Shown here: positions 7,265 through 38,762 of the stretch, one piece after another | Layout of the letters: every line of letters begins with the position of its first letter | Numbering within the stretch: position 1 is the stretch's first letter | Source: a virus | Length of the DNA: 38,762 nt | Virus record (IMG/VR): IMGVR_UViG_3300048905_000063 | Span: 1 to 38,762 of that record | Strand: one strand, 5' to 3' | Position numbers and translations under genes: made by a program | Notes under the pieces: model-generated | Seen by the model: only the letters and a program-made list of their open reading frames with translations | Database searches by the model: none | What the model was told of the DNA's origin: nothing

Positions 7265-7486
7265 ATGAAAAGGCTCAGCCCAGAGATTATCGCCAAATTC
7301 GGGAGCATCCAAGCGATCTCCGATTTGGTCCATGCGCCACATTCCACGGTGAAAGCCTGGCGGTCGCGCATATCCGATTCCCGTCTGCATCATCTGCGCC
7401 TTGCGTCGATGGCGGCAGGGTTGGAGATTCCGTGGGACACGCTGGAAGACGCAGATCCGCTGCCCGACAAGAAGGAGGCAGCATGA
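7265..7486 (+). CDS. Cro-like small DNA-binding regulator (73 aa)
   Basis: Divergent from the repressor. FGSIQAISDLVHAPHSTVKAWRSR is an HTH-like segment. Its stop overlaps the next ATG (ATGA). Confidence 0.6.
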   Translation: MKRLSPEIIAKFGSIQAISDLVHAPHSTVKAWRSRISDSRLHHLRLASMAAGLEIPWDTLEDADPLPDKKEAA

Positions 7487-8688
7487 GCAAGCGCGTCTAT
7501 TTCCTTCGCCCTATTGGCCAGCTTGGGCCGGTCAAAATCGGCTGCTCTAAGTTTCCCGAATCCCGGCTCGACACATTCACCATTTGGTCGCCGCAGCGCC
7601 TCGAGCTGGTTTGCTCGGTTCCCGGCACACACAAGGACGAGCGCACGCTTCACGCGATGTTCGCCAAGCATCGGGTTCATGGTGAGTGGTTCGGCGCCAG
7701 CAAGGAATTGCTCGCGCTGATCGACCACTGCCAAACGGTCGGCGCGCTTCCGGCGCTTCCCGAGGTCGTCAGGTTTCCGGTGATCCGTCACGTCGGCCAT
7801 GCGCGCCGCGCCAAAGGAGTCCGCGAACCTCTCCCGCTGCCCGCTCACAAGTTGGCGATCGCCACGACGATGCGCGGCCAATACGAAAGCGGCCTCACCG
7901 CTTCTGCGCTGTCCGCGGAACACGGCATACAGATCCAAACGGTCTATAAGTATTTGCGTGCGGTCGGGACTGCGATGCGTCCTCGCGGGCCGGGAGCGGC
8001 GCCGAGCGGCGTAACTGACGTTGATCGCGCGACGGCGTGGCGGGACCGCTATCTGGCCGGCGAAACGCTCCAGCAGATCGCCGACGATTATGACGTGACT
8101 CGCGAGCGGGTGCGCCAAGTTCTCCGCAAGTTCGGTGTCGATACGCTTGGGCATCGTCCCGAGCATAGGAACCAGCCTGCCCCTCTCACCGAACAGCAAA
8201 AGCTGGCAGCAGAACTCTACGCCCAAGGCATCCGCCCCCTCGAAATCAAGAAGCGGGTTGGGTTCAAGCCTAGCATTAATCTGCTCACTAAGGCGGGCGT
8301 CGAGACGAAGCCGGTTGGTTCGTGGAACACTCGCCCTGACGACGCAGAGATCACCCGCACCGTCGCCGACCTCTACCGCGCCGGATTGCGGGCGAAAGAA
8401 ATTGTCGAGCGGGTTCCGGCGCTGCGCTATCCCGAAACGGTCTATCGCTATCTGAAAAAGGCCGGTGTCGCCGCGCGGCAGAAGGCGGCTAGCCCGCTCG
8501 CTCCGTTCGTCATCAGCCAGTTTCGGAACGGCGACACGCTCCAGGACATTGCCAAGCGCTTCGGCATCAGCCCGATGACCGTGCGCCGCTTGCTTGAGCG
8601 CAACGGCGTCACGAACATCGCAGAGGAATTGAAGCGCCGTCACGCTCGCGCCGTTTCCGCAGCCAACGCGCGCCGGAAAGCTGCATGA
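7483..8688 (+). CDS. T5orf172 (GIY-YIG-like) domain protein with five tandem HTH modules (401 aa)
   Basis: The ATG at 7483 is preceded by AAGGAGG. N-terminus VYFLRPIG..VKIGCS..R...ERTLHAMFAKHRVHGEWF. Five repeats end in (Y/L)Lxx(x)GV, for example GETLQQIADDYDVTRERVRQVLRKFGV. Confidence 0.7.
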   Translation: MSKRVYFLRPIGQLGPVKIGCSKFPESRLDTFTIWSPQRLELVCSVPGTHKDERTLHAMFAKHRVHGEWFGASKELLALIDHCQTVGALPALPEVVRFPVIRHVGHARRAKGVREPLPLPAHKLAIATTMRGQYESGLTASALSAEHGIQIQTVYKYLRAVGTAMRPRGPGAAPSGVTDVDRATAWRDRYLAGETLQQIADDYDVTRERVRQVLRKFGVDTLGHRPEHRNQPAPLTEQQKLAAELYAQGIRPLEIKKRVGFKPSINLLTKAGVETKPVGSWNTRPDDAEITRTVADLYRAGLRAKEIVERVPALRYPETVYRYLKKAGVAARQKAASPLAPFVISQFRNGDTLQDIAKRFGISPMTVRRLLERNGVTNIAEELKRRHARAVSAANARRKAA

Positions 8689-21784: not shown

Positions 21785-23209
21785 ATGAGCCTCCTGCTAC
21801 TAATTGGACGCAGCCCTGAACTGGTCATCAACGGCAACGGCGATGCGGTTACAGGCTGGGTCAATAATGACTCATCAACCTCAACAATCACCTCCGTTGC
21901 TAGCCGCCTTCGCATTACCAGCACGGGCGCTGGTGGCGGTACATGGAATGAAACCTATTCGGTCACAACGGGCCAAAGCTACCGCGTCCGCGCTACATTA
22001 TACCCGCACGAATTGGACCGCGCCCGTCTTTCGGTCGCGATTGGCGGTTCGACGATCCTCGTCAGATATTCCGATACCGTGGGTGGGGTCGTTGATTTCA
22101 CCTATGTCTCGGGCGGGCCGAGCAATATCATCACGCTGGAAGCGGCAAGCGGTTCGGCCTTTGTCAGCGTCGGTGAATATGCCGAGTTCGACGATGTTAG
22201 TGTCCAGGCCCTCGCGGGGGCAATAACCGGGTCGTCATCGCTCACCTTCGGGCAAACCGGGTCGGTAACCGGCGCCGGAACGCTGGCGGGAGCGCCGGGG
22301 CTGGTATTTGCGGCAAGCGCGGGTGAGAGCGCGGCGGGTGCCCTTGCAGGTGTCTCCGCGCTACTGTTCACGCCGACGGGCGGCGAGACGGCCAAGGGGG
22401 CACTCGCGGGCACGTCTGCGGGTCTGTTCGGGGCGAGCGGCGGCGAAGCGGCGAGCGGGACACTGGCGGGAACGTCGGCGGTATCGTTCGGCACAACGGG
22501 AACGGCAAACGCGCTAACGCCGGTTTCCGCTTCATCGGGAGTCCTGTTCGGCCAAAACGGGGCGCTAACCGCCAAGGGCGCGCTTGCAGGCACGTCGGCA
22601 GGACTGTGGACGGCAACGGGTACCGAAACCGCTTCGGGCGCGCTGGTGGGCACTACAGGGGTTGTTTTCGGGCAATCGGGGACAGCCAAGGGCGCGGCAA
22701 CACTCGTCGCGTCGTCCGCGCTTGGGTTTGGCCAAACTGGATCACTCGCCGCAAGCGGTTCACTCGCCGGGACTTCGACGGGGCTATGGGGCGCCAATGC
22801 AAGCGGTTCGACCTCGGGCGCCGTAACCGGGTCGGCTGGCATAGTATTCGGGCAAAGCGGGACCACGACAGCAATCGCGTCGGTCAATGCCTCCTCTTCG
22901 CTAGTTTTCGCATCTGCGGCGCTTTTGAGTGGAAATGCGGCCACCAACGGTTCGGCTGCGGTTACTTTCTCATCATCGGGCCTTATCTCGGCGCAAGCTG
23001 CGTCAACTGGAACCGCCAGTGTTGCTTTTGGTCCTGCTGGAACATTGACAGGTGTTGCGGCAATTCTGCCGATCGCGCCCCGGCCATTTGTCTTGCGGGC
23101 CATCGACCAAGGCCAGTCGAGCGGTTCGGGCCGCGCTTATTCGTCGGGCGCCGCGCGGTCACGATCCGCCGGTACAAGCCGCGCCTATAGTTCACGAAGG
23201 GGACGCTAG
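21785..23209 (+). CDS. Fibre-like protein: N-terminal jelly-roll/CBM-like domain plus about 13 tandem 20-aa repeats
   Basis: The N-terminus ends in YAEFDDVSVQ. Repeats then follow of the type GGETAKGALAGTSAGLFGAS. Confidence 0.65.
   Translation: MSLLLLIGRSPELVINGNGDAVTGWVNNDSSTSTITSVASRLRITSTGAGGGTWNETYSVTTGQSYRVRATLYPHELDRARLSVAIGGSTILVRYSDTVGGVVDFTYVSGGPSNIITLEAASGSAFVSVGEYAEFDDVSVQALAGAITGSSSLTFGQTGSVTGAGTLAGAPGLVFAASAGESAAGALAGVSALLFTPTGGETAKGALAGTSAGLFGASGGEAASGTLAGTSAVSFGTTGTANALTPVSASSGVLFGQNGALTAKGALAGTSAGLWTATGTETASGALVGTTGVVFGQSGTAKGAATLVASSALGFGQTGSLAASGSLAGTSTGLWGANASGSTSGAVTGSAGIVFGQSGTTTAIASVNASSSLVFASAALLSGNAATNGSAAVTFSSSGLISAQAASTGTASVAFGPAGTLTGVAAILPIAPRPFVLRAIDQGQSSGSGRAYSSGAARSRSAGTSRAYSSRRGR
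22215..23045 (+). repeat. In-frame degenerate tandem repeat, 60-nt period, about 13 units
   Basis: An aromatic-Gly dipeptide (FG/WG/FA/FT) recurs every 20 residues. Confidence 0.75.
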
Positions 23210-23773: not shown

Positions 23774-25150
23774 ATGCCCGCGATCAAATACGGGAGCGGG
23801 AGCTATCGCCGAGACAGAGGGGGGCTTCCCGAGTTCCGCCTCGTCAATATGTTTCTGGAAGCGACGCCCTCGGCTGAAAATGGCGTTGTGCTGCTATCGC
23901 GGCAGGGGTTGACGACTAGCACGACGGTAGGCGCCGGGCCGATCCGGGGTGTATTTAGCGAGCCGGGGACGTTCGGCGGCGACGTGTTCACCGTGTCGGG
24001 CGGCAACCTTTATCGCGGCGCGACCTTGCTCCTGGCGATTGCCGGGACAGGGCCGGTATCGTTCGCCGCCTCGGGGCTTGAACTGCTCGTGACGGCGGGG
24101 ACGACGCTCTACAGCTACAACGGGACCAACACGGTCGCGGTGACGTTTCCCGATAGCGCCAATGTCCGTTCAATCGCCTTTATCAGCGGTCACTTTATCG
24201 CGGTGCGCGACGGCTCGCAAAAATACTACTGGTCGGCGCAGCTGGACGGGCGGTCATGGGATGCGCTCGATTTTGCCTCGGCGGAATCGGAGCCCGACAG
24301 CCTGCTCGACGCTCTTTCAATGCGCGGCAACCTCTATTTGATGGGGCAATCGACGATCGAGCCGTGGTTCTACACGGGAAGCCTCGATCTGCCCTTTTCG
24401 CTGATCCAGCAGCGTCTTTTCCCCAAGGGCGTATTTGCCACGGGCTGCGCGGTCGAAATGGACAATGCGCTGTTCTGGGTCGGATCGGACGGGATTGTCT
24501 ATCGCACGTCGGACGTTCCTGAACGGCTGTCCAATCACGGAATAGAGGAACGGGTCGCCGCTAGTGCAACGGCCTCGGCCTTTGGCTTCATCCAGGAGGG
24601 GCACAGCTTCTTCTGTATGCGCCTTGCCACGGGCACTTATGTTTATGACGCGGCGACAAGCGAGTGGTGCGAGTTCCAGAGCTACGGGCGGGTCAATTTC
24701 GCGGGGCGCTGCGCCACGTCTCAAGGTCGGACGATCCTGCTCGGCGATGACGCGACGGGCAAAATATGGACCTTCTCGGGCTATGCCGACAACGACGTCG
24801 AAATGGTCCGCGAGTTCACCGCTGCTGCACCGATCAAGGGCGGCACGGCGGTCGTCGATAGCTTGGCGGTTGATGTCAGTGTCGGTCACACGACGTTGCT
24901 CACCGGGCAAGGGTCCGATCCCGTCATTGAAATGGCGTTGTCGCGCGATGCTGGGGTGACATGGTCGCCTTGGCGCGCGGCCAAGCTGGGGGCGGTGGGC
25001 AAGTATCGGGCGCGACCTCGCTGGACGCGCCTTGGCATGTTCGATTCTCCGGGTGCTGTGTTTAAGTTTCGGGTGTCCGACCCGGTATCGGTGCGGCTGT
25101 CCAATGTCCTGACCAACGAAGACGGCGGGGGACGCAGTCGTGGTGCTTAA
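23774..25150 (+). CDS. P22 gp10-like tail hub / packaged-DNA stabilisation protein
   Basis: 458 aa. The N-terminus ...LPEFRLVNMFLEATP resembles gp10 DYLPVNML. Position after the gp4-like gene. Confidence 0.55.
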   Translation: MPAIKYGSGSYRRDRGGLPEFRLVNMFLEATPSAENGVVLLSRQGLTTSTTVGAGPIRGVFSEPGTFGGDVFTVSGGNLYRGATLLLAIAGTGPVSFAASGLELLVTAGTTLYSYNGTNTVAVTFPDSANVRSIAFISGHFIAVRDGSQKYYWSAQLDGRSWDALDFASAESEPDSLLDALSMRGNLYLMGQSTIEPWFYTGSLDLPFSLIQQRLFPKGVFATGCAVEMDNALFWVGSDGIVYRTSDVPERLSNHGIEERVAASATASAFGFIQEGHSFFCMRLATGTYVYDAATSEWCEFQSYGRVNFAGRCATSQGRTILLGDDATGKIWTFSGYADNDVEMVREFTAAAPIKGGTAVVDSLAVDVSVGHTTLLTGQGSDPVIEMALSRDAGVTWSPWRAAKLGAVGKYRARPRWTRLGMFDSPGAVFKFRVSDPVSVRLSNVLTNEDGGGRSRGA

Positions 25151-25823
25151 ACTCGAACGCCTCGCGCCCGGCTCGCCGATCACGGGCAAGGATGGCAGCG
25201 CAACGCTTCCGTTCGCGGTGACGTGGCAAAAACTGGTCGAACAGATCGAAGGAGCCTATACCTCGCTGGCCGATCAATTGGCTGCGATTCAGGCCGCGCA
25301 AGACGCTGCCGATGCCGCCAACGCCGCTGCCGCTGCTGCCGATGCTGCCGCAGCCAGCGCGCAGACCTCGGCGGACTCGGCCAACACTGCCGCTTCAACG
25401 GCCAATACAGCGGCAACGACGGCCCAAGCTACTGCGGATGCAGCAGCATTGGCGGCAGCACTGGCTAATAGTTACGTTTCCGGCGCCACGCTCTCGGCGG
25501 CCGACGCCGGGTCAAATGCAACGATCACGATTAGCGGTCACACCCGCTATTATCCGCAAGCGGACGGCTCGATTACCAGCGTATCGGTAACAGGGGGAAG
25601 CCTCACCGGGCTGGCCTATTCGACGCTGTATTATATCTATTATGACCAGCCTTCGCGTGCTGGCGGGGCGGTAACTTATCATTCGACCACGAGCATCACG
25701 ACGGCGGCACAGGTCAACGATCGCCACCTTGTAGGCTCGGTAACAACCCCGGCGGCATTGGCAGCTAACACAAGCGGTTATTACGTCCTTCCGCCCGGCG
25801 TCGGTTCGCTGAACTATTTCTGA
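25140..25823 (+). CDS. Tail needle / fibre-like Ala-rich coiled-coil protein (gp26-like by position)
   Basis: GTG start. AAIQAAQDAADAANAAAAAADAAAASAQTSADSANTAASTANTAATTAQATADAA, then a C-terminal globular domain. Confidence 0.45.
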   Translation: MVLKLERLAPGSPITGKDGSATLPFAVTWQKLVEQIEGAYTSLADQLAAIQAAQDAADAANAAAAAADAAAASAQTSADSANTAASTANTAATTAQATADAAALAAALANSYVSGATLSAADAGSNATITISGHTRYYPQADGSITSVSVTGGSLTGLAYSTLYYIYYDQPSRAGGAVTYHSTTSITTAAQVNDRHLVGSVTTPAALAANTSGYYVLPPGVGSLNYF

Positions 25824-26881
25824 TGAGCTACCTGATCCTCGCCTTGCCGCGCTCGCGCACAACCTGGCTGTCGCGGTTCCTGACCTATGGCGAATGGAGT
25901 TGCGGGCACGAGGAATTGCGGCACCTGCGAAGCCTCGACGATGCCAAAGCGTGGTTTTCTCAGGACTGCACGGGAACGGCGGAAACAGCGGCTGCGCCTT
26001 GGTGGCGGCTACTTGGTAAGTTGGCGCCAGATACGAAGATCGTCCTTATCCGTCGCCCCGTTGGCGAAGTCGTTGACAGCCTCATGGCGCTGCCCCTCCC
26101 GTTCGACCGGGCCACGCTTGAAAAAACGATGGCTTACCACGACCGCAAGCTCGACCAGATCGCGACACGGCTGCCCTGTCTGTCGGTTGATTATGCCGAT
26201 CTTGCCAAGGCCGAAACCTGCAAGGCGGTATTTGAATATTGCCTGCCCTATGACTTTGACGAGGCCCATTGGAAGCGATGGGACGCCGAGAACGTCCAGT
26301 GCGATATGCGCGGGTTGATGCGGTATATGACGGCATACGCTCCCGCTCTGGAGAAACTGGCCAAGGTTGCGAAGCATCAAACGCTGACTGCGATGCGTCT
26401 GCGGCCCCCGGTCGTTGCCGAGGGCATGACGATACAGACCGAAAGTTTCGATAGCTGGATTGCCGGGGCACAGCACCTTTTTGACGAGCACCTGGTGATG
26501 GTCGGCGAGGCGCCGGGCGAATGGGAATCGAAGAACATCCCCTTGCTTCGGCGGATTTACGAAGCGGACGCGATGCAGATCACGACCGCGCGCTGCAACG
26601 GCAAGATGTTCGGTTACCTCGTCACGATCGTCACGCCTTCGCTGGAAAAGGAAGGCCGGACGTGGGCTGCGAATAACACGCACTACGCCTCGCCCGACGT
26701 TCCTGGGCTTGGGCTTAAGCTCCAGCGGGCAAGCATCCGGGCATTGAAGGAACGCGGTGTGTACGAACTGTTCGCACAGGCCGGGGTGCGCGGGTCCGGT
26801 GAACGGATTGCATCAATCTATAAGCGCCTCGGCGCGGCCAATGACGGACAGATGTTCCGCCTCCAACTAGAGGATTGTTGA
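25823..26881 (+). CDS. Sulfotransferase-like P-loop domain fused to a GNAT-like acetyltransferase domain
   Basis: N-terminus LILALPRSRTTWLSRFL (PAPS 5'-phosphosulfate-binding-loop-like) and IRRPVGEVVDS (3'-phosphate motif-like). C-terminus VPGLGLKLQRASIRALKERGV...IASIYKRLGA (GNAT motif A-like). Confidence 0.45.
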   Translation: MSYLILALPRSRTTWLSRFLTYGEWSCGHEELRHLRSLDDAKAWFSQDCTGTAETAAAPWWRLLGKLAPDTKIVLIRRPVGEVVDSLMALPLPFDRATLEKTMAYHDRKLDQIATRLPCLSVDYADLAKAETCKAVFEYCLPYDFDEAHWKRWDAENVQCDMRGLMRYMTAYAPALEKLAKVAKHQTLTAMRLRPPVVAEGMTIQTESFDSWIAGAQHLFDEHLVMVGEAPGEWESKNIPLLRRIYEADAMQITTARCNGKMFGYLVTIVTPSLEKEGRTWAANNTHYASPDVPGLGLKLQRASIRALKERGVYELFAQAGVRGSGERIASIYKRLGAANDGQMFRLQLEDC

Positions 26882-26882
26882 T

Positions 26883-27938
26883 ATGGGTATTGCGGCAGCA
26901 GCCGGAATTACTGCCGTTGCTGCAATCGGCGGCGCGGCGATCAGTTCATCGGCGAGCAAAAAGGCGGCTAATAAGGCGGCGGATGCGGCGACCCAAAACG
27001 CCGAGGCAAGCAACGCGCTGCAATCGCAGATCTACGGCGAGAACAAGGCGCTTCTTTCACCCTACGTCAACCGGGGCAATTCGGCGGGCGATGCGATCAA
27101 CGCGCTGCTCGGGTTGGGCGGGCCTCTAGCCGCCGCTCCCGCGCAAGGAACGCAGCAATATGGCCCGGCAGTCCCCGCCACAACGGGCGGCACTTATGGC
27201 GGCGGCGGGCTGTTCGGCAATGTCCCGGTGAATAGCGGTTTTGGCAACGTCATTGGCGCACTCGGCGGGATGGGCGGGCAGCAACAGGCAGCGAACCAGC
27301 CCCCCTATGTCATGGTGGGCGGGAAAACCTACGCGAACACCGCTGACGCCTTCGCCGATCCCAACGTCACCGCAAACCAGCGACAAGAGTTGATGATGGC
27401 ATTGCAGATGCAGGGCTATCAGCTTCCACAGACCGCGCAACCTGCCGTCCCCGCCGCAAGTTCCGGCACTGGTAGCGCGGCGGCGGGCTCACCCTATGAC
27501 GCGGCATTCAAGAACTATCTCGGTTCGACCGGGTATCAGTTCCAGATCGACCAGGGCAACAAGGGCATCAACCAGGGCTATGCTGCCAAGGGCGCGCTCC
27601 AGTCCGGTGCCGCATTGAAGGCGCTGCAAACCTACGGTCAGAATACCGCGACGGGCTTTTTCAAGGACTATCTCGGGCTGCTGTCAAACCAGCAGGCGGT
27701 CGGACTTTCTGGCGCCGGGGCGGTCGCCGGGGTGGGGACCGGCTATGCGAACAGCGTTAGCGCGAACAACGCCAACGCCTCCAACGCCATCGGTAATGCG
27801 GCACTGGCGAGTGCGAACGGCACGAACAACGCGATTGGCACGGCGGTTGGTGGCATCCAGAGCGCGGCTAATATGTTCGGATCAAGCTATGCTCCCAAGA
27901 ATGCGATGGCACCCATCCCGCCGTGGGCTGAATACTGA
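26883..27938 (+). CDS. Internal virion / ejection protein (Gly/Ala/Gln-rich)
   Basis: N-terminal hydrophobic segment GIAAAAGITAVAAIGGAAI. Position in the ejection-protein block. Confidence 0.5.
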   Translation: MGIAAAAGITAVAAIGGAAISSSASKKAANKAADAATQNAEASNALQSQIYGENKALLSPYVNRGNSAGDAINALLGLGGPLAAAPAQGTQQYGPAVPATTGGTYGGGGLFGNVPVNSGFGNVIGALGGMGGQQQAANQPPYVMVGGKTYANTADAFADPNVTANQRQELMMALQMQGYQLPQTAQPAVPAASSGTGSAAAGSPYDAAFKNYLGSTGYQFQIDQGNKGINQGYAAKGALQSGAALKALQTYGQNTATGFFKDYLGLLSNQQAVGLSGAGAVAGVGTGYANSVSANNANASNAIGNAALASANGTNNAIGTAVGGIQSAANMFGSSYAPKNAMAPIPPWAEY

Positions 27939-28144
27939 TGGACGAGATCGAACGGCTCCAAGCCAAGCTCAAGGCCCGCGAGGGGCAGCCCGGCTTCAAG
28001 GCTAATGTGGAAGCGATCAAGGCCGAGATCGACCGGCTGGAAAGCCTGACCTACCAATACCGGGACAATGCGACGGGGCAATTTGTCACCGCAGAATACG
28101 CCCTCGCCAATCCTGACACGACACACCGGGTGGAGTTGCCATGA
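27938..28144 (+). CDS. Hypothetical coiled-coil protein (68 aa)
   Basis: ATGA overlaps at both ends. Confidence 0.5.
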
Positions 28145-29433
28145 GCGAGCTTAATTGGGGCCTGCTGGACCCGAACGCCTATTCGAACGGGGTGGCGCAG
28201 GGTCGCGCCGCACTTGATGCAGTGGGCGCGACTTTCAAACAGCGGGGCATTGACAACGCCCTTCGCCAATATGCGACCAACCCGGATGATCCCAATTCGA
28301 TCAACGCGCTAGCAGCGGTCGATCCGATGTTGGCGATCAAGGCCCGCGCCCAGCAGGCGGAAACGGCAACGGGGCTTCGCAAGGAACACCAAGCGGCCCT
28401 TGAGGCTAACCGCGATAATATCATCCGGGGAGCCCAAATCGTTCGCCAGTTGCAGCCAAAAGATCAGGCGAGTTGGGATCAGGCGCTATCGACCGCGCAA
28501 AACCTCGGGATTGATGTCACCCATGTCCCTCGCAACTGGAACGATCCGGCGACACAGCAATATGCCCAAGGGCTGATTGCTGCGGCGGATGCATTCGAGC
28601 CGCAGAAGCCGGAATCGTCGCCCTATCAGGTTGTCCCCGGCCAGCCCGGCGCTGGCGTCTACCGCTTCGACAAGCGCACAGGCGGCATTACCGAGCTAGT
28701 CCACGCCAACGACGGTTCCGGGGTAACGCCAAGCGCAGCGGCGACAACTGGCGGACCTCCCCCCGCCGCGATTCAGATGCTTCGCTCAAACCCCTCGCTC
28801 GCCGCGCACTTTGACGAGAAATACGGCGCGGGCGCTGCGTCTAGAGTCCTAGGAGGTCAGACGCCCCCCGCGTCTGGTAACTTTTCTCCCTTAGTTCCGG
28901 GGAATATCGACCTTCATCACCGCCCCATCGTCCACAACAAGGATGGTTCGATCTCGACTGTCCGATCGATGTCGTTCGGGACCGACCAAGGCGAAGTCCT
29001 CGTGCCGACCGTTAGTGAAGATGGGCGGATCATGACTGACCGCGAGGCGATGGATGCTTATCGCAAGACCGGCAAGCACCTAGGGATATTCAAGACGCCG
29101 GAAGAGGCTACCGCCTACGCGCAGTCCTTACATGAAGATCAGGCAAAAGAATATCTACCGCAGAGCCGCGCAACTTTCCCTGACCCGTTCAAGGCACCGG
29201 GCACAGTAACGAGCGGACGCCGCACGATCGAAGGTAACAGGGCGGTCGGCGGCGCGCCCCACTCGCATCATCTCGACGGCGATGCGGTCGATTATGTTGG
29301 CACGAGCGAGAATGCGTTGCGCGGCTATTTCGGCCCCCAAGCGCGGTATCTCAACGAAGGCGACCACATTCACGTCACGCTGCCAGGGTATCACAAGGTG
29401 CCTTATTTCGGTCAGCGTGGGTCGAAAGGATAA
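28141..29433 (+). CDS. Internal virion protein with C-terminal M15A (LAS) zinc peptidase domain
   Basis: [29 protein letters not shown] ... GDHIHV matches the SxHxxGxAxD ... H metal-ligand pattern. Confidence 0.7.
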
Positions 29434-29436
29434 TAG

Positions 29437-31956
29437 ATGGCTAATCCGTTCGACGCATTTGATCCGGTCCCGGTGCCAATCCTCGGCGCGCCCAAGCCCG
29501 TCGATCCCTACAAGGCCGAAGACCAGCAGTTGCAACGTGACGCGGCAGACCGTGCGGAACGGGCAGCCGACAGGGCGGACAAGACGGCACAGCGCCAAGC
29601 AGCGGCAGCGGAATTGTCAGCGAAGGCGGCAACCAAGCCGACTGAGTTCCAAGCCAAGTCGGCGGGTTTTCTCGGGCGCATGATGGAGGCGGAAAAAGCC
29701 TTTAGCGCCGTCCCGGAATCAGATCGTGGCGCTCGTTCGCTTCCACGGCAGACGCTTCACAACATGTTGCCGGGGGTGGAAAACACCTTTGTCAATTCCG
29801 CAGACCGGCAGAAGGCCGATCAGGCGCAAGAGAACTTCATCGCGGCATCGCTTCGCCAAGAGTCGGGCGCGGCCATTTCGCCGCAGGAGTTTACGCGCCA
29901 ATACAACATCTTCTTTCCCGCGCCGGGGGACAGTGCGGAAACACTGGCGCAAAAGGCCGATGCCCGCCGCCAGGCAATCGAGGGGTTCAAGATCGCCGCC
30001 GGTCCCTTGGCTGAACAGGCGGCGGGCACGACCCAAACGCCTTTGCCCGATGCGGCTGTGCAGAGCGAATTACAGGCCCGGATTTCGCGCGGCGATGATC
30101 CCAAAGCAACGATTGCCTGGCTTATAGCGGCGGGTCATCCGCCGACTGATGATCAAGCCAAGGCGATCATGCTGAACGCGGGCAACCCCCATCCCGACGT
30201 GCGCCCGCCAGAGCCGCCCGCTGGTGGCGGCGGTGGTGTATGGGGCGAGCTAGGGCAGGCCACAGGCAATGTCGTGTCTGGCATCGCCCAAGGTGTTGCA
30301 GCCTTGCCCGACATGGCGGCGAACGCTGTAGGCGCGACTCTCGCCCTTCCCGCGCAGGCGATGGGCTTCGACCATGCGGCGGACGTGCTACGCCACCCCT
30401 TCACCATCGGGGGGGCAATCGAGCAGGCCAACCCCACGCCGCAGGACGCGGGCGGCAAGACGGCGCGCATCGGGGCACAGTTCCTCGGCGGGGCCATAGG
30501 CTTCCCGCAAAGCGCGGCACAGGCCATTACCAACCGGATCGTGGGCGAAGTACCAAAAGCCATCCCGAATGCGCTGGCGGGCGGCACAGCGCCGATCATG
30601 CGAGCCGCGCAGAGGCAGGGGGTTGAATTGCTCCCCGCCGACGTTGGGGGTGATTTCGTTAAGGGCATGACGAGCGCAGCGGCACAGGCTCCGTTGTCAC
30701 GTGGGTCGATCATGGGCGTATCGCGCCGAGCCGCAACACAGTTGGGCAACGCCGCCCGCCGTACGGCCAACGGGGTCGGAGAAGTCCTACCTCCTGACGA
30801 AGCGGGGGCCGCTATCCGGCGCGGCGGCGAGCAGGTTGTCGCCAAGCAAACCGACCGGGCTTCGCGCTTTTACGAGCGCGCGGGCGAGCAGGCCAAGGGC
30901 GTGACCGTCATTCCCGACGAGGCGATCAAGGTCATCGACGACCAGATTGCCCGCAAGTCGCAGGCGGGCGAAATGTCCAGCGATATTGTCGGCGAGTTGC
31001 AGAAGGTCCGCCGCTCGCTGGCCCAGCCCGGCGGCATGACGGTTGAAGGGCTGCGGCAGGCCCGGACCATCCTCGGCGCGCTGGCAAGGAACGACAAGCT
31101 GCGCGGAACCGACGCCCAGCGCATCTTCGGCAATGCCTTGAACGCTGCCAGCGAGGATATGTCGCGGGCGCTGTCCGAGGCCGGGAAACCGGGAACGGCC
31201 CGCCTGTTCCGCCGTGCCGATGCGCTGTGGAAAGAGCGTATTATGAACATCGACGAAGTGTGGCAGCCGATCATCGGCAAGGCCAAGAGCGGCGAGGATA
31301 TTGTAAATTCGGTCGAAGCGATGGCGCGGGGCAGCCGGGGTGGGGCTATGCGGTTGCAGCGTGTCATGGCTGAAATGCCGGAATCGGAGAAGGGGGACTT
31401 CGTAGCGACCGCGATTGACCGGCTCGGCAAGGCGTCCGCTGGTGCACAGGATGACACGGGTGGCGTCTTTTCGTCCGAAACCTTCCTCACCAACTGGAAC
31501 AAGATGTCCGCCAAGGGAAAGGCGGCGTTGTTCGGCAATAGCGAGACGCGCCGCAATCTTGATGACATCGCCATGATCGCGGCGGGGCGCAGGGGCACGG
31601 CGGCGATTGCGTCCAAGTCGAACACCCCGATTGGTCTGACAGGGAATGTCGGCACGCTGGCTGGGGTTGGCGCGGTCACGAACCCGGCAACGGCGGTCGT
31701 GCTGGGCGGGTTGCAATATGCGACCGGCAAGCTCTTGGCATCGCCGGCCTTCACCAAATGGCTGGCCCGTACTCCTAGAAGCGCGGCGGGGATCGGGCCG
31801 CACATTGCTCGCCTATCCACCATCGCTTCGCAAAACCCGGCGATTGCCGATGACATTGCGCGGTTTCAGCGGATGATCAGCGGGGCGGCGAATGAAAACG
31901 TCGGCGTTGCTGGCCTCGCGGCGTCAGACCCCAGGACCGATGCCAACCGCAAATAG
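29437..31956 (+). CDS. Large internal virion / DNA-ejection protein (839 aa)
   Basis: Size, position and Ala/Gly/Gln-rich helical composition resemble P22 gp20/gp16-type proteins. Confidence 0.55.
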   Translation: MANPFDAFDPVPVPILGAPKPVDPYKAEDQQLQRDAADRAERAADRADKTAQRQAAAAELSAKAATKPTEFQAKSAGFLGRMMEAEKAFSAVPESDRGARSLPRQTLHNMLPGVENTFVNSADRQKADQAQENFIAASLRQESGAAISPQEFTRQYNIFFPAPGDSAETLAQKADARRQAIEGFKIAAGPLAEQAAGTTQTPLPDAAVQSELQARISRGDDPKATIAWLIAAGHPPTDDQAKAIMLNAGNPHPDVRPPEPPAGGGGGVWGELGQATGNVVSGIAQGVAALPDMAANAVGATLALPAQAMGFDHAADVLRHPFTIGGAIEQANPTPQDAGGKTARIGAQFLGGAIGFPQSAAQAITNRIVGEVPKAIPNALAGGTAPIMRAAQRQGVELLPADVGGDFVKGMTSAAAQAPLSRGSIMGVSRRAATQLGNAARRTANGVGEVLPPDEAGAAIRRGGEQVVAKQTDRASRFYERAGEQAKGVTVIPDEAIKVIDDQIARKSQAGEMSSDIVGELQKVRRSLAQPGGMTVEGLRQARTILGALARNDKLRGTDAQRIFGNALNAASEDMSRALSEAGKPGTARLFRRADALWKERIMNIDEVWQPIIGKAKSGEDIVNSVEAMARGSRGGAMRLQRVMAEMPESEKGDFVATAIDRLGKASAGAQDDTGGVFSSETFLTNWNKMSAKGKAALFGNSETRRNLDDIAMIAAGRRGTAAIASKSNTPIGLTGNVGTLAGVGAVTNPATAVVLGGLQYATGKLLASPAFTKWLARTPRSAAGIGPHIARLSTIASQNPAIADDIARFQRMISGAANENVGVAGLAASDPRTDANRK

Positions 31957-38452: not shown

Positions 38453-38695
38453 CTAGTCCTCTCCTGTAGGGATGGGCGGAAGGGGTTCGCGCCATTCGGT
38501 CGGGCAGCACAGGTTCCCCGCAAAGACCGGGAAGAACTTGTCGGGCGTGTAGACGGTGGTGCAGAACGTGTTGTCGGGATGCACCGCGCCGTTCCAGACG
38601 TAGCCGCGTGTGGCGAGGCAGGGCTTTTCCATCTGCTTGTTTCGGACCTCAATCACCCTCTGAAACGGCGCCGTCTCAATTGGTTGCCAAGCCAT
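38453..38695 (-). CDS. DUF551-like small protein (80 aa)
   Basis: MAWQPIETAP N-terminal motif. GAGGAG 8 nt upstream. Its 5' end lies in the terminal repeat, so it also appears truncated at 1..60. Confidence 0.6.
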   Translation of the reverse strand: MAWQPIETAPFQRVIEVRNKQMEKPCLATRGYVWNGAVHPDNTFCTTVYTPDKFFPVFAGNLCCPTEWREPLPPIPTGED

Positions 38696-38762
38696 TCTCA
38701 ATACTCCTCGGGCTGGGATGGGAGACGGGCGGTCACTGGTACACCGTCGGATAGATCGACTT
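38636..38762. repeat. Direct terminal repeat, copy 2 (identical to 1..127)
   Basis: Exact 127-nt match to the window start. It spans the 5' end of CDS 38453..38695 and the 3' end of CDS 98..328. Confidence 0.95.

Follow-up and report, generated by a model that had tools for sequence, protein, structure and literature searches.

A putative sulfotransferase-like/GNAT fusion protein at the P22 gene 14/T7 gene 13 position of a P22-like temperate podovirus

Gene organization of the locus

In this study, a gene encoding a 352-aa protein was analyzed in IMG/VR virus record IMGVR_UViG_3300048905_000063; the window is the whole stretch of 38,762 nt. The gene and its neighbors are as follows.

23774..25150, + strand: gp10-like head-closure/tail-hub protein, assigned by PHROG match (phrog_578, Hc3); opens the conserved block
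25140..25823, + strand: 227-aa Ala-rich coiled-coil protein, needle/fibre candidate by position only; its stop overlaps the start of the 352-aa gene
25823..26881, + strand: 352-aa gene in the IVP-A slot (the P22 gene 14/T7 gene 13 position), assigned from the ORF, full-length family conservation, synteny, and the P22 and T7 gene orders
26883..27938, + strand: ejection protein E1, IVP-B/P22 gp7 family, assigned by PHROG profile (phrog_598); starts 1 nt past the 352-aa gene
28141..29433, + strand: ejection-protein candidate E2, with a C-terminal Peptidase_M15_3 (muralytic) domain by profile match
29437..31956, + strand: ejection-protein candidate E3, 839 aa, in the gp16/IVP-D position, assigned by position and the conserved downstream size pattern

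The 352-aa gene overlaps the upstream ORF by 1 nt, the last base of the upstream TGA being the first of its ATG, and its stop codon (26879-26881) is followed by 1 base and then the ATG of E1 at 26883. The packing by 1-nt junctions described in a sequence-only reading of this DNA was thus borne out, and the motifs quoted there were located in the protein: LILALPRSRTTWL at residues 4-16, IRRPVGEVVDS at 76-86, VPGLGLKLQRASIRALKERGV at 293-313, and IASIYKRLGA at 329-338. The same reading had placed the gene between a gp26-like needle gene and the ejection proteins. The downstream half of this placement stood, E1 being a profile-level homologue of P22 gp7 (phrog_598 is common to both, and pairwise BLAST between them was not significant). 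For the upstream half the likeness is limited: the 227-aa protein showed no sequence similarity to P22 gp26 and only weak 'tail fiber' matches in PHROG, and it is like gp26 solely in position, size, and Ala-rich coiled-coil character.

No promoter-like site was found near the 352-aa gene, and terminator-like sites were not above chance; a moron or independent expression was therefore rejected. Neither a signal peptide nor a membrane segment was predicted from the protein sequence.

The gene order of P22 is 10-26-14-7-20-16, and in T7 gene 13 precedes 14-15-16. In this window and in relatives, the order is a gp10-like gene, small genes, the 352-aa-type gene, and three ejection-type genes. Of 86 loci, 78 have the gp10-like gene upstream in the same orientation, and the three downstream genes have a conserved size pattern in relatives (medians of 268, 560, and 593 aa). 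The gene thus lies in a late operon and directly precedes the genes for IVP-B and the large ejection proteins, which is the IVP-A position. IVP-A has been described as a nonstructural, acetyltransferase-like protein of T7 that morphogenesis requires, with equivalents in VpV262-like, P22, and epsilon15 phages (Hardies 2016, PMC4819975). These proteins are needed to assemble the ejection proteins, are reported not to stay in virions, and have no reported enzymatic activity (PMC4819975).

N-terminal sulfotransferase-like domain

The 352-aa protein was divided into two domains and a linker.

25823..26302, + strand: N-terminal sulfotransferase-like domain, approximately aa 1-160, from Pfam, phrog_10855, an AlphaFold model, Foldseek, TPST2 alignment, and conservation
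26303..26419, + strand: long helical linker between the domains, approximately aa 161-199, from DSSP of the models (helices over 162-193)
26420..26878, + strand: C-terminal GNAT domain, approximately aa 200-352, from Foldseek against PDB and BFVD, phrog_1249, Pfam in relatives, and conservation

Profile and structure searches agreed with the earlier proposal of a sulfotransferase-like N half and a GNAT-like C half. Against Pfam, the 352-aa protein gave sub-threshold scores with Sulfotransfer_3 (21.1-23.7 bits, GA 27) and Sulfotransfer_4 (16-17.2 bits, GA 22.8). Some relatives scored above the cut-off (P0208, 23.2 bits versus 22.8), and several homologues have a precomputed PF13469 assignment. 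Among 126 diverse family members, Sulfotransfer_3, _4, and _1 were matched by 32, 15, and 3, respectively, and the only Pfam families matched were sulfotransferase and GNAT families.

The AlphaFold model of the N-domain had a pLDDT of 81.6 and a pTM of 0.73. Its best PDB matches in Foldseek were SULT1A3, TPST1/2, Cpz8, and CurM-ST, all sulfotransferases, with TM of 0.45-0.57 and E values of 1e-4 to 1e-2; P-loop kinases followed close behind. A kinase or NTPase identity was rejected because the domain has no Walker A motif (G-x4-G-K-S/T) and kinases rank below sulfotransferases.

The domain contains a PSB-type loop, P9-R10-S11-R12-T13-x-W15, and a 3'-PB-type motif, R77-R78-P79...S86, which is flanked in the model by a strand (72-77) and a helix (80-88). 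Further motifs are C27-x-H29-E30, G51-x-x-E54-T55, and N157-x-Q159. In an HMM alignment to the verified sulfotransferase TPST2, which scored only 10.6 bits, the two cofactor motifs fell at TPST2 R78/S79/T81 and R183/S191. The loop P-R-S-R-T/S-x-W is near-invariant and aligns to PRSGTT of TPST2, a sequence also present in PaMx28 gp68; R78 and S86, forming the R-x7-S motif, correspond to TPST2 R183 and S191. The invariant pair H29-D/E30 aligns at TPST2 E98-E99. Across about 120 representatives at no more than 50% identity, the near-invariant residues were P9, R10, S11, R/G12, T/S13, W15, H29, D/E30, E54, T55, R78, and S86. Position 12 is Arg in approximately 94% of relatives and Gly in approximately 6%, sulfotransferases having Gly.

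The likeness to PAPS sulfotransferases (TPST1/2 and bacterial Sulfotransfer_3/4) therefore consists of a strand-loop-helix with P-R-S-x-T and a strand-helix with R...S at equivalent positions and, for TPST2, a His or acidic residue that follows a conserved Cys-x and falls in the Glu99 region of the alignment. The N-domain comprises about 160 aa, compared with 260-300 aa in sulfotransferases, and is about 100 residues shorter than the solved members. No Lys aligned with the catalytic Lys of sulfotransferases (TPST2 K158, SULT K106); the corresponding strand closes with the invariant E54-T55, a position occupied by Lys/His in those enzymes. No C-terminal 3'-phosphate-binding element was found in the domain, that is, no counterpart of TPST2 S285 or of the SULT GxxGxxK element. 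On the models and alignments, the prediction holds that residues 1 to about 160 form a shortened PAPS-sulfotransferase-like fold keeping the PSB-loop and 3'-PB residues.

Homologues of this domain occur alone in phages as 'sulfotransferase-like / NTP hydrolase' proteins (phrog_10855), including PaMx28 gp68, phiH1 GP01, and Stenotrophomonas Bhz60_00032, which are 25-28% identical over the full length and have the same PSB and 3'-PB residues. Unlike the 352-aa protein, they are single-domain proteins encoded in siphophage DNA-replication/nucleotide-metabolism modules, away from ejection proteins; the N-domain is therefore not intrinsically tied to virion assembly.

C-terminal GNAT domain

In Foldseek, the model of the C-domain matched solved GNAT structures (more than 50) and numerous GNAT models from viruses with a probability of 1.0 and TM to target of 0.6-0.75 (about 0.7), and the order of secondary-structure elements is as in the GNAT fold. 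The beta4-alpha3 loop reads G295-x-G297 and is followed by K299-L300-Q301-R302. Both glycines are near-invariant (64-68 of 71 and 18-19 of 19) and precede a K/R-L-Q/H-R helix; the Q/R position of motif A varies in the family, being D/E, or P/R/K depending on the register. Other near-invariant residues are E207, H223, A256-R257, G264-Y265, G326, and R335-x-G337.

In profile searches, the 352-aa protein itself matched no Pfam GNAT family, and its nearest PHROG was phrog_1249 (E = 0.0018). Acetyltransf_1 was matched by 30 of the 126 family members (best E, 2.2e-7), and other members matched Acetyltransf_6, _7, and _9. Sequence-profile searches of PDB chains were uninformative, giving only spurious matches to designed repeats and marginal ones to NAA30, SgdX2, and PseH. 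The fold comparison and the matches of relatives agree in predicting that residues from about 200 to 352 form a GNAT fold keeping the G-x-G CoA loop, an assignment that holds at the level of the models.

The full-length model had a pTM of 0.53 with good per-domain pLDDT, and the relative orientation of the two domains is therefore uncertain. Full-model Foldseek matches included the tRNA(Met) cytidine acetyltransferase TmcA (2zpa), in which a nucleotide-binding alpha/beta domain is likewise followed by GNAT. The analogy is no more than loose, as the two structures superpose poorly (rmsd of about 17 A) and TmcA has a helicase-type ATPase with Walker A, which the 352-aa protein does not have.

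Family distribution and domain architectures

Database searches yielded 786 close homologues and 2,928 representatives at 50% identity, and the fusion protein was present in 372 IMG/VR contigs, indicating that the two-domain fusion proposed earlier is real and conserved. The hosts are mainly Alphaproteobacteria and include Azospirillum, Sphingomonas, and Rhizobiales. With tblastn, the full-length protein had no match among cultured phages (INPHARED); the N-domain alone, searched at relaxed E, found distant siphophage homologues. Surveying the same position in relatives showed that the slot, the synteny, and the 1-nt coupling recur, the gap to the next gene being exactly 1 nt in 63 of 80 loci. 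Together with the number of close homologues and the near-invariance of the motif residues, this confirms that the tight coupling and the motifs are more than chance.

Among 150 representatives, 19 had a gp13-like module followed by sulfotransferase-like and GNAT domains, and 13 had the gp13-like and sulfotransferase-like modules. The extension in these fusions is phrog_308, which T7 gp13 matches at 1e-42, and in loci L007 and L106 the gp13-like fusions lie directly before an IVP-B-type gene and a giant protein with a lytic domain. Versions with only the sulfotransferase-like or only the GNAT domain were also found, still in the IVP-A slot. They are real architectures rather than artefacts of split genes, since tblastn found no missing half adjoining them in L104 and L105. 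The slot is thus modular, with gp13-like, sulfotransferase-like, and GNAT modules in five combinations. Locus L020 looks frameshifted.

This distribution bears on the possibility that the protein modifies the host surface, sulfating or acetylating LPS, EPS, or capsule so as to cause seroconversion, superinfection exclusion, or receptor masking. Polysaccharides are commonly decorated by sulfotransferases and acetyltransferases, and the hosts named above make decorated surface glycans. However, conserved 1-nt coupling ties the gene into the late structural operon, where it has neither a promoter nor a terminator to itself. Conversion genes such as P22 gtrABC lie close to the integrase or tailspike, and this gene does not; nor does its product have a signal peptide or membrane segment. 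Fusion to IVP-A modules, occupation of the same slot in T7-type layouts, and adherence of the single-domain versions to the slot argue in the same direction. We regard a role at the host surface as very unlikely.

Relationship to T7 gp13 and P22 gp14

The IVP-A class comprises T7 gp13 (phrog_308), P22 gp14 (DUF2824/phrog_651), and VpV262-type acetyltransferases (phrog_1249, Acetyltransf_1). The 352-aa protein resembles the class in its slot directly before IVP-B (P22 gp7/T7 gp14), its late operon, and its acetyltransferase-fold C-domain, the GNAT domain supplying the fold expected of an IVP-A. It differs in being more than twice as long and in having the additional sulfotransferase-like domain and helical linker. 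VpV262 ORFS belongs to phrog_1249 (2.6e-20) and occupies the same slot; the VpV262-type proteins at this position are bona fide members of Pfam Acetyltransf_1. In hhalign, the relation of the C-domain to the gp13-like module was weak and only suggestive (98 collinear columns, P value of 7.8e-4, probability of 25%). Direct homology to P22 gp14 was not detectable with the profiles used (BLASTP E = 5; hhalign of two profiles against DUF2824, probability 0.5%), so the link to gp14 rests on position and the literature. Neither a DUF2824 gene nor a separate gp13-like gene was found in the window or in 98 loci.

The sequence-only reading had considered a protein of this kind to be outside the canonical P22-type set. 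This has to be revised: P22 carries gene 14 and T7 gene 13 in this slot, and an acetyltransferase-fold assembly factor has already been described there (PMC4819975), which leaves the sulfotransferase-like domain and the three-module variants as the sole unusual features. Since the gp13-like module and GNAT coexist in the three-module relatives, GNAT may not simply be 'the' IVP-A.

A protein in this position could act purely as a scaffold or chaperone, serving as IVP-A by binding the ejection proteins, with both folds being relics without transferase chemistry. The gp13-like module, when aligned to the GNAT C-domain, has no G-x-G loop, unlike the 352-aa protein; at least one IVP-A type therefore has a degenerate CoA site. 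The Gly-to-Arg change in the PSB loop, the truncated sulfotransferase fold without the catalytic Lys or third PAPS element, and the lack of a reported IVP-A activity (PMC4819975) are likewise in accord with binding alone. On the other hand, the residues that are near-invariant in representatives at no more than 50% identity are the cofactor-contacting ones (PSB loop, R78/S86, and G295/G297), the conserved polar set H29, E30, E54, E207, H223, R257, and Y265 is typical of active sites, and the VpV262-type counterparts are genuine acetyltransferase family members. Weighing these points, we consider pure scaffolding rather unlikely.

Alternatively, the protein might be packaged in the virion and ejected as an effector, being loaded with the ejection proteins and then acetylating and/or sulfonating a host target for takeover or anti-defence. 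Its gene lies with those of the ejection proteins and is co-translated with them, relatives carry a fused module from a family named 'internal virion protein', acetyl-CoA and PAPS are found solely in the cytoplasm, the compartment that an ejected enzyme would reach, and phage GNATs acting on host targets are known (mentioned in PMC10269572). Against this, IVP-A is reported not to stay in virions (PMC4819975), and the sequence suggests no unfolding or translocation features. Ejection as an effector thus appears improbable.

Proposed role

The folds, the motif residues, the position and coupling of the gene, the gp13-like fusions, and the lack of a separate gp14 or gp13 homologue are the observations on which an assembly role is based. 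Our main reading, with a probability of roughly 0.55, is that the 352-aa protein is a late, cytoplasmic morphogenetic factor of the IVP-A type with two predicted cofactor-binding domains and acts on the ejection proteins. Among the three functions suggested earlier, modification of a virion component fits best, an ejected enzyme is possible, and host-surface seroconversion fits worst in view of the late-operon coupling, the absence of an own promoter or terminator, and the IVP-A fusions.

According to this proposal, the gene would be the IVP-A-slot gene of a P22-like temperate podovirus, in whose lineage the usual acetyltransferase-fold protein of about 150 aa (P22 gp14, T7 gp13) may have been replaced by one in which a sulfotransferase-like nucleotide-binding domain is joined by a long helix to a GNAT keeping the CoA-pyrophosphate loop. 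Synthesis would take place in the cytoplasm at a late stage of infection, coupled at translation to that of E1, and the protein would bind and/or covalently modify the ejection proteins of the downstream genes ahead of their loading into the procapsid. The chemistry could be acyl transfer from acyl-CoA and possibly sulfuryl transfer from PAPS, and the protein would probably not remain in the virion.

A stronger form of the proposal is that the slot proteins are true enzymes and that this family uses acyl-CoA and PAPS to modify ejection proteins covalently (e.g., by acylating N termini or Lys and sulfating Tyr/Ser), a step that packaging or trans-envelope channel assembly would require. We consider this form unlikely at present; if true, phage morphogenesis would gain its first example of a PAPS-dependent protein modification, and the T7 gp13/P22 gp14 class, long enigmatic, would acquire a biochemical function.

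Conclusions

The finding bears on how podoviruses load ejection proteins into the capsid and on the role of T7 gp13 and P22 gp14. Members of this abundant family retain CoA- and PAPS-type motifs that look intact, together with a second enzyme-like domain, so that the question of catalysis by the slot protein is better approached through them than through gp13 or gp14. In addition, thousands of 'hypothetical proteins' encoded by alphaproteobacterial prophages can be annotated in this way.

Genome context and position of the gene

The window is a temperate P22-like podovirus genome of 38.8 kb with 61.8% GC. An exact 127-nt direct repeat was observed at both ends (1-127 and 38636-38762); therefore, the assembly is regarded as closed (circularly complete). 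The following genes were identified.

Genes identified in the window
Integrase, large terminase, portal and major capsid protein
Ad3 adaptor and gp10-like head-closure protein, upstream of the coiled-coil protein
25140-25823 (+), coiled-coil protein, adjoining the 352-aa ORF on the upstream side
25823-26881 (+), 352-aa ORF
phrog_598 "DNA ejection" protein (P22 gp7 family), downstream of the 352-aa ORF
Protein with a Peptidase_M15 domain, after the phrog_598 gene
839-aa protein, tailspike-sized protein and endolysin, further genes

The tightly packed 352-aa ORF described in the sequence-only reading is real: the translation contained the quoted peptides, its ATG overlaps by one base the stop codon (TGA) of the 227-aa ORF that precedes it, and one base separates its stop codon from the ATG of the next gene. 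The upstream gene had been called a gp26-like needle; it is like gp26 in position only, and no similarity to P22 gp26 was detectable. No promoter-like site was found near the ORF, and terminator-like sites were not above chance. Downstream, the candidate ejection protein E2 (28141-29433, +) ends in a Peptidase_M15_3 domain, a peptidoglycan peptidase and not a transglycosylase, and a 68-aa ORF (27938-28144, +) is squeezed between it and ejection protein E1.

Two other ORFs were observed. A 474-aa Gly/Ala/Ser/Thr-rich ORF (21785-23209, +), flanked by the head genes on one side and the Ad3 adaptor on the other, contains degenerate units with a periodicity of ~20 aa (TRF: 60-nt period, 22379-22491) and has no match in PHROG or Pfam; it may encode a fibre or decoration protein. 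The 418-aa protein at 7432-8688 (+), with many weak matches to HTH and HNH-type DNA-binding PHROGs, is probably an early-region multi-HTH regulator or replication-initiation protein.

Since the P22 gene order is 4-10-26-14-7-20-16, the ORF occupies the gene-14 slot; T7 gene 13 lies in the equivalent slot, ahead of genes 14-15-16. Uncultured phages and an Azospirillum prophage keep the gene at this position. Among 98 loci sampled from genomes and IMG/VR, 78 of 86 had a same-strand gp10-like gene upstream, and 63 of 80 had a gap of exactly 1 nt before the next gene. The next three genes encode proteins with median lengths of 268, 560 and 593 aa, compared with 229, 471 and 609 aa for P22 gp7, gp20 and gp16. 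The interval from the gp10-like gene to the ORF varied from ~0.35 to 4 kb among relatives, indicating a variable tail-tip cassette.

Family size and domain assignment

The protein had 786 close matches, conserved over the full length; an exhaustive search gave 2,928 family representatives at 50% identity, and 372 viral contigs in IMG/VR carry a relative. Hosts were mostly Alphaproteobacteria (Sphingomonas, Azospirillum, Acidocella, Beijerinckiaceae and Rhizobiales), with some Gamma- and Betaproteobacteria.

The N-terminal half had been proposed to be sulfotransferase-like, and this fold assignment stands, with the caveats given below. The window protein matched Sulfotransfer_3 (E 6.7e-5, 23.7 bits; GA 27) and Sulfotransfer_4 below the Pfam threshold, and its best PHROG was phrog_10855 (4.5e-13). 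When 126 diverse members were scanned singly, Sulfotransfer_3, _4 and _1 were matched by 32, 15 and 3, respectively; these and Acetyltransf_1, _6, _7 and _9 (30, 7, 5 and 1 members) were the only Pfam families matched repeatedly. An AlphaFold model of the protein was built with 35 homologues (pLDDT 82.5), and the N-domain was modelled separately (pLDDT 81.6, pTM 0.73). The nearest PDB structures to the latter were the sulfotransferases SULT1A3, TPST1/2, Cpz8 and CurM-ST (TM-scores 0.45-0.57), with P-loop kinases ranking after them. The TPST2 sequence used for alignment was checked against the PDB (100% identical to 9wwe/3ap1). The N-domain HMM aligned to it with only 10.6 bits, placing P-R-S-x-T on the 5′-phosphosulfate-binding (PSB) loop, C-G-H-E on C-G-E-E (Glu99 region) and R78...S86 on R183...S191. 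Unlike sulfotransferases, the N-domain has Arg in place of Gly in the PSB loop and a truncated fold, and no equivalent of the catalytic Lys was found in it.

The proposed GNAT-like fold of the C-terminal half was borne out by the modelled structure and by the Acetyltransf matches in relatives. The window protein alone had no GNAT match in Pfam, and the best PHROG of this half was phrog_1249 "acetyltransferase" (0.0018). In the AlphaFold model it matched more than 50 solved GNATs (Foldseek probability 1.0, TM ~0.7) and many models of viral GNATs.

Residue conservation was scored over ~120 representatives sharing ≤50% identity. Nearly invariant residues in the N-domain were P9, R10, S11, R12 (G in about 6%), T/S13, W15, C27, H29, D/E30, G51, E54, T55, R77, R78, S86, N157 and Q159, and those in the C-domain were E207, H223, A256, R257, G264, Y265, G295, G297, G326, R335 and G337. 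Because cofactor-contacting residues are near-invariant in both domains, their sequences argue for genuine ligand binding or catalysis.

Relation to IVP-A and modular variants

In the description by Hardies et al. (PMC4819975), the internal-virion-protein operon of T7 comprises genes A to D. VpV262 ORFS, a Pfam GNAT directly upstream of 203-aa and 1,536-aa proteins, belongs to phrog_1249, the best PHROG match of the C-domain. An extra N-terminal module of ~150 aa, assigned to phrog_308, the family of T7 gp13, was found in addition to both domains on 19 of 150 representatives, and a further 13 consisted of this module and the sulfotransferase-like (ST) domain only. The slot is modular: different phages carry ST-only, GNAT-only, gp13-like+ST or gp13-like+ST+GNAT versions, the single-domain forms having no other half nearby.

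Modular variants in the slot, upstream of ejection proteins
L104, 4899-5540
L105, 585-1058
L106, 1640-2734
L007, 135-1682

The L007 and L106 fusions, which include the gp13-like module, are followed by a phrog_418 IVP-B or IVP-B-sized gene and then by giant proteins with lytic domains. In a Sterolibacterium MAG (L020, 10001-10977), the gp13-like+ST and GNAT parts lie in different reading frames, which reflects a frameshift or else misassembly. Neither DUF2824 nor a separate gp13-like gene was found in the window or the 98 loci.

In profile comparisons, the C-domain showed no signal with gp14 and a suggestive, collinear alignment with the gp13-like module (P 7.8e-4, probability 25%), in which the gp13 side is without the G-x-G loop. 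This loss of the CoA loop in gp13, together with the degenerate PSB loop, would suit a scaffold with dead catalytic sites, an unlikely explanation given the residue conservation. The module, position and VpV262 results fit the IVP-A account of Hardies et al. (PMC4819975). As IVP-A is reported there to be absent from virions, an effector packaged in the virion and then ejected is quite improbable. Conversion of surface polysaccharide is more doubtful still: the gene is coupled into its operon, its slot is conserved in both P22- and T7-type layouts, relatives are fused to IVP-A modules, and the protein has no export signals.

Stand-alone homologues and interpretation

Distant stand-alone homologues of the N-domain (25-28% identity) include PaMx28 gp68 (L102, 4992-5534), which has the canonical PRSGTT, and Stenotrophomonas phage Bhz60_00032 (L103, 4980-5558). 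These homologues, from cultured Pseudomonas and Stenotrophomonas siphophages and annotated as "hydrolase", "NTP hydrolase" or "similar to sulfotransferase", lie not in the ejection-protein slot but within DNA-replication or nucleotide-metabolism modules; therefore, the N-domain is used beyond virion assembly.

A GNAT-fold factor in the IVP-A slot is already known. No paper pairing "sulfotransferase" with "P22-like" was found in the literature search, and no ST-GNAT fusion was found among cultured phages; what appears undescribed is the sulfotransferase-like domain, together with the fusions of two and three modules and how large the family is. The gene is best read as the factor that fills the IVP-A slot in this lineage of phages, extended by a domain of the sulfotransferase-like type. 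Its product would be late, cytoplasmic and co-translated with the ejection proteins, which would most likely be its targets.
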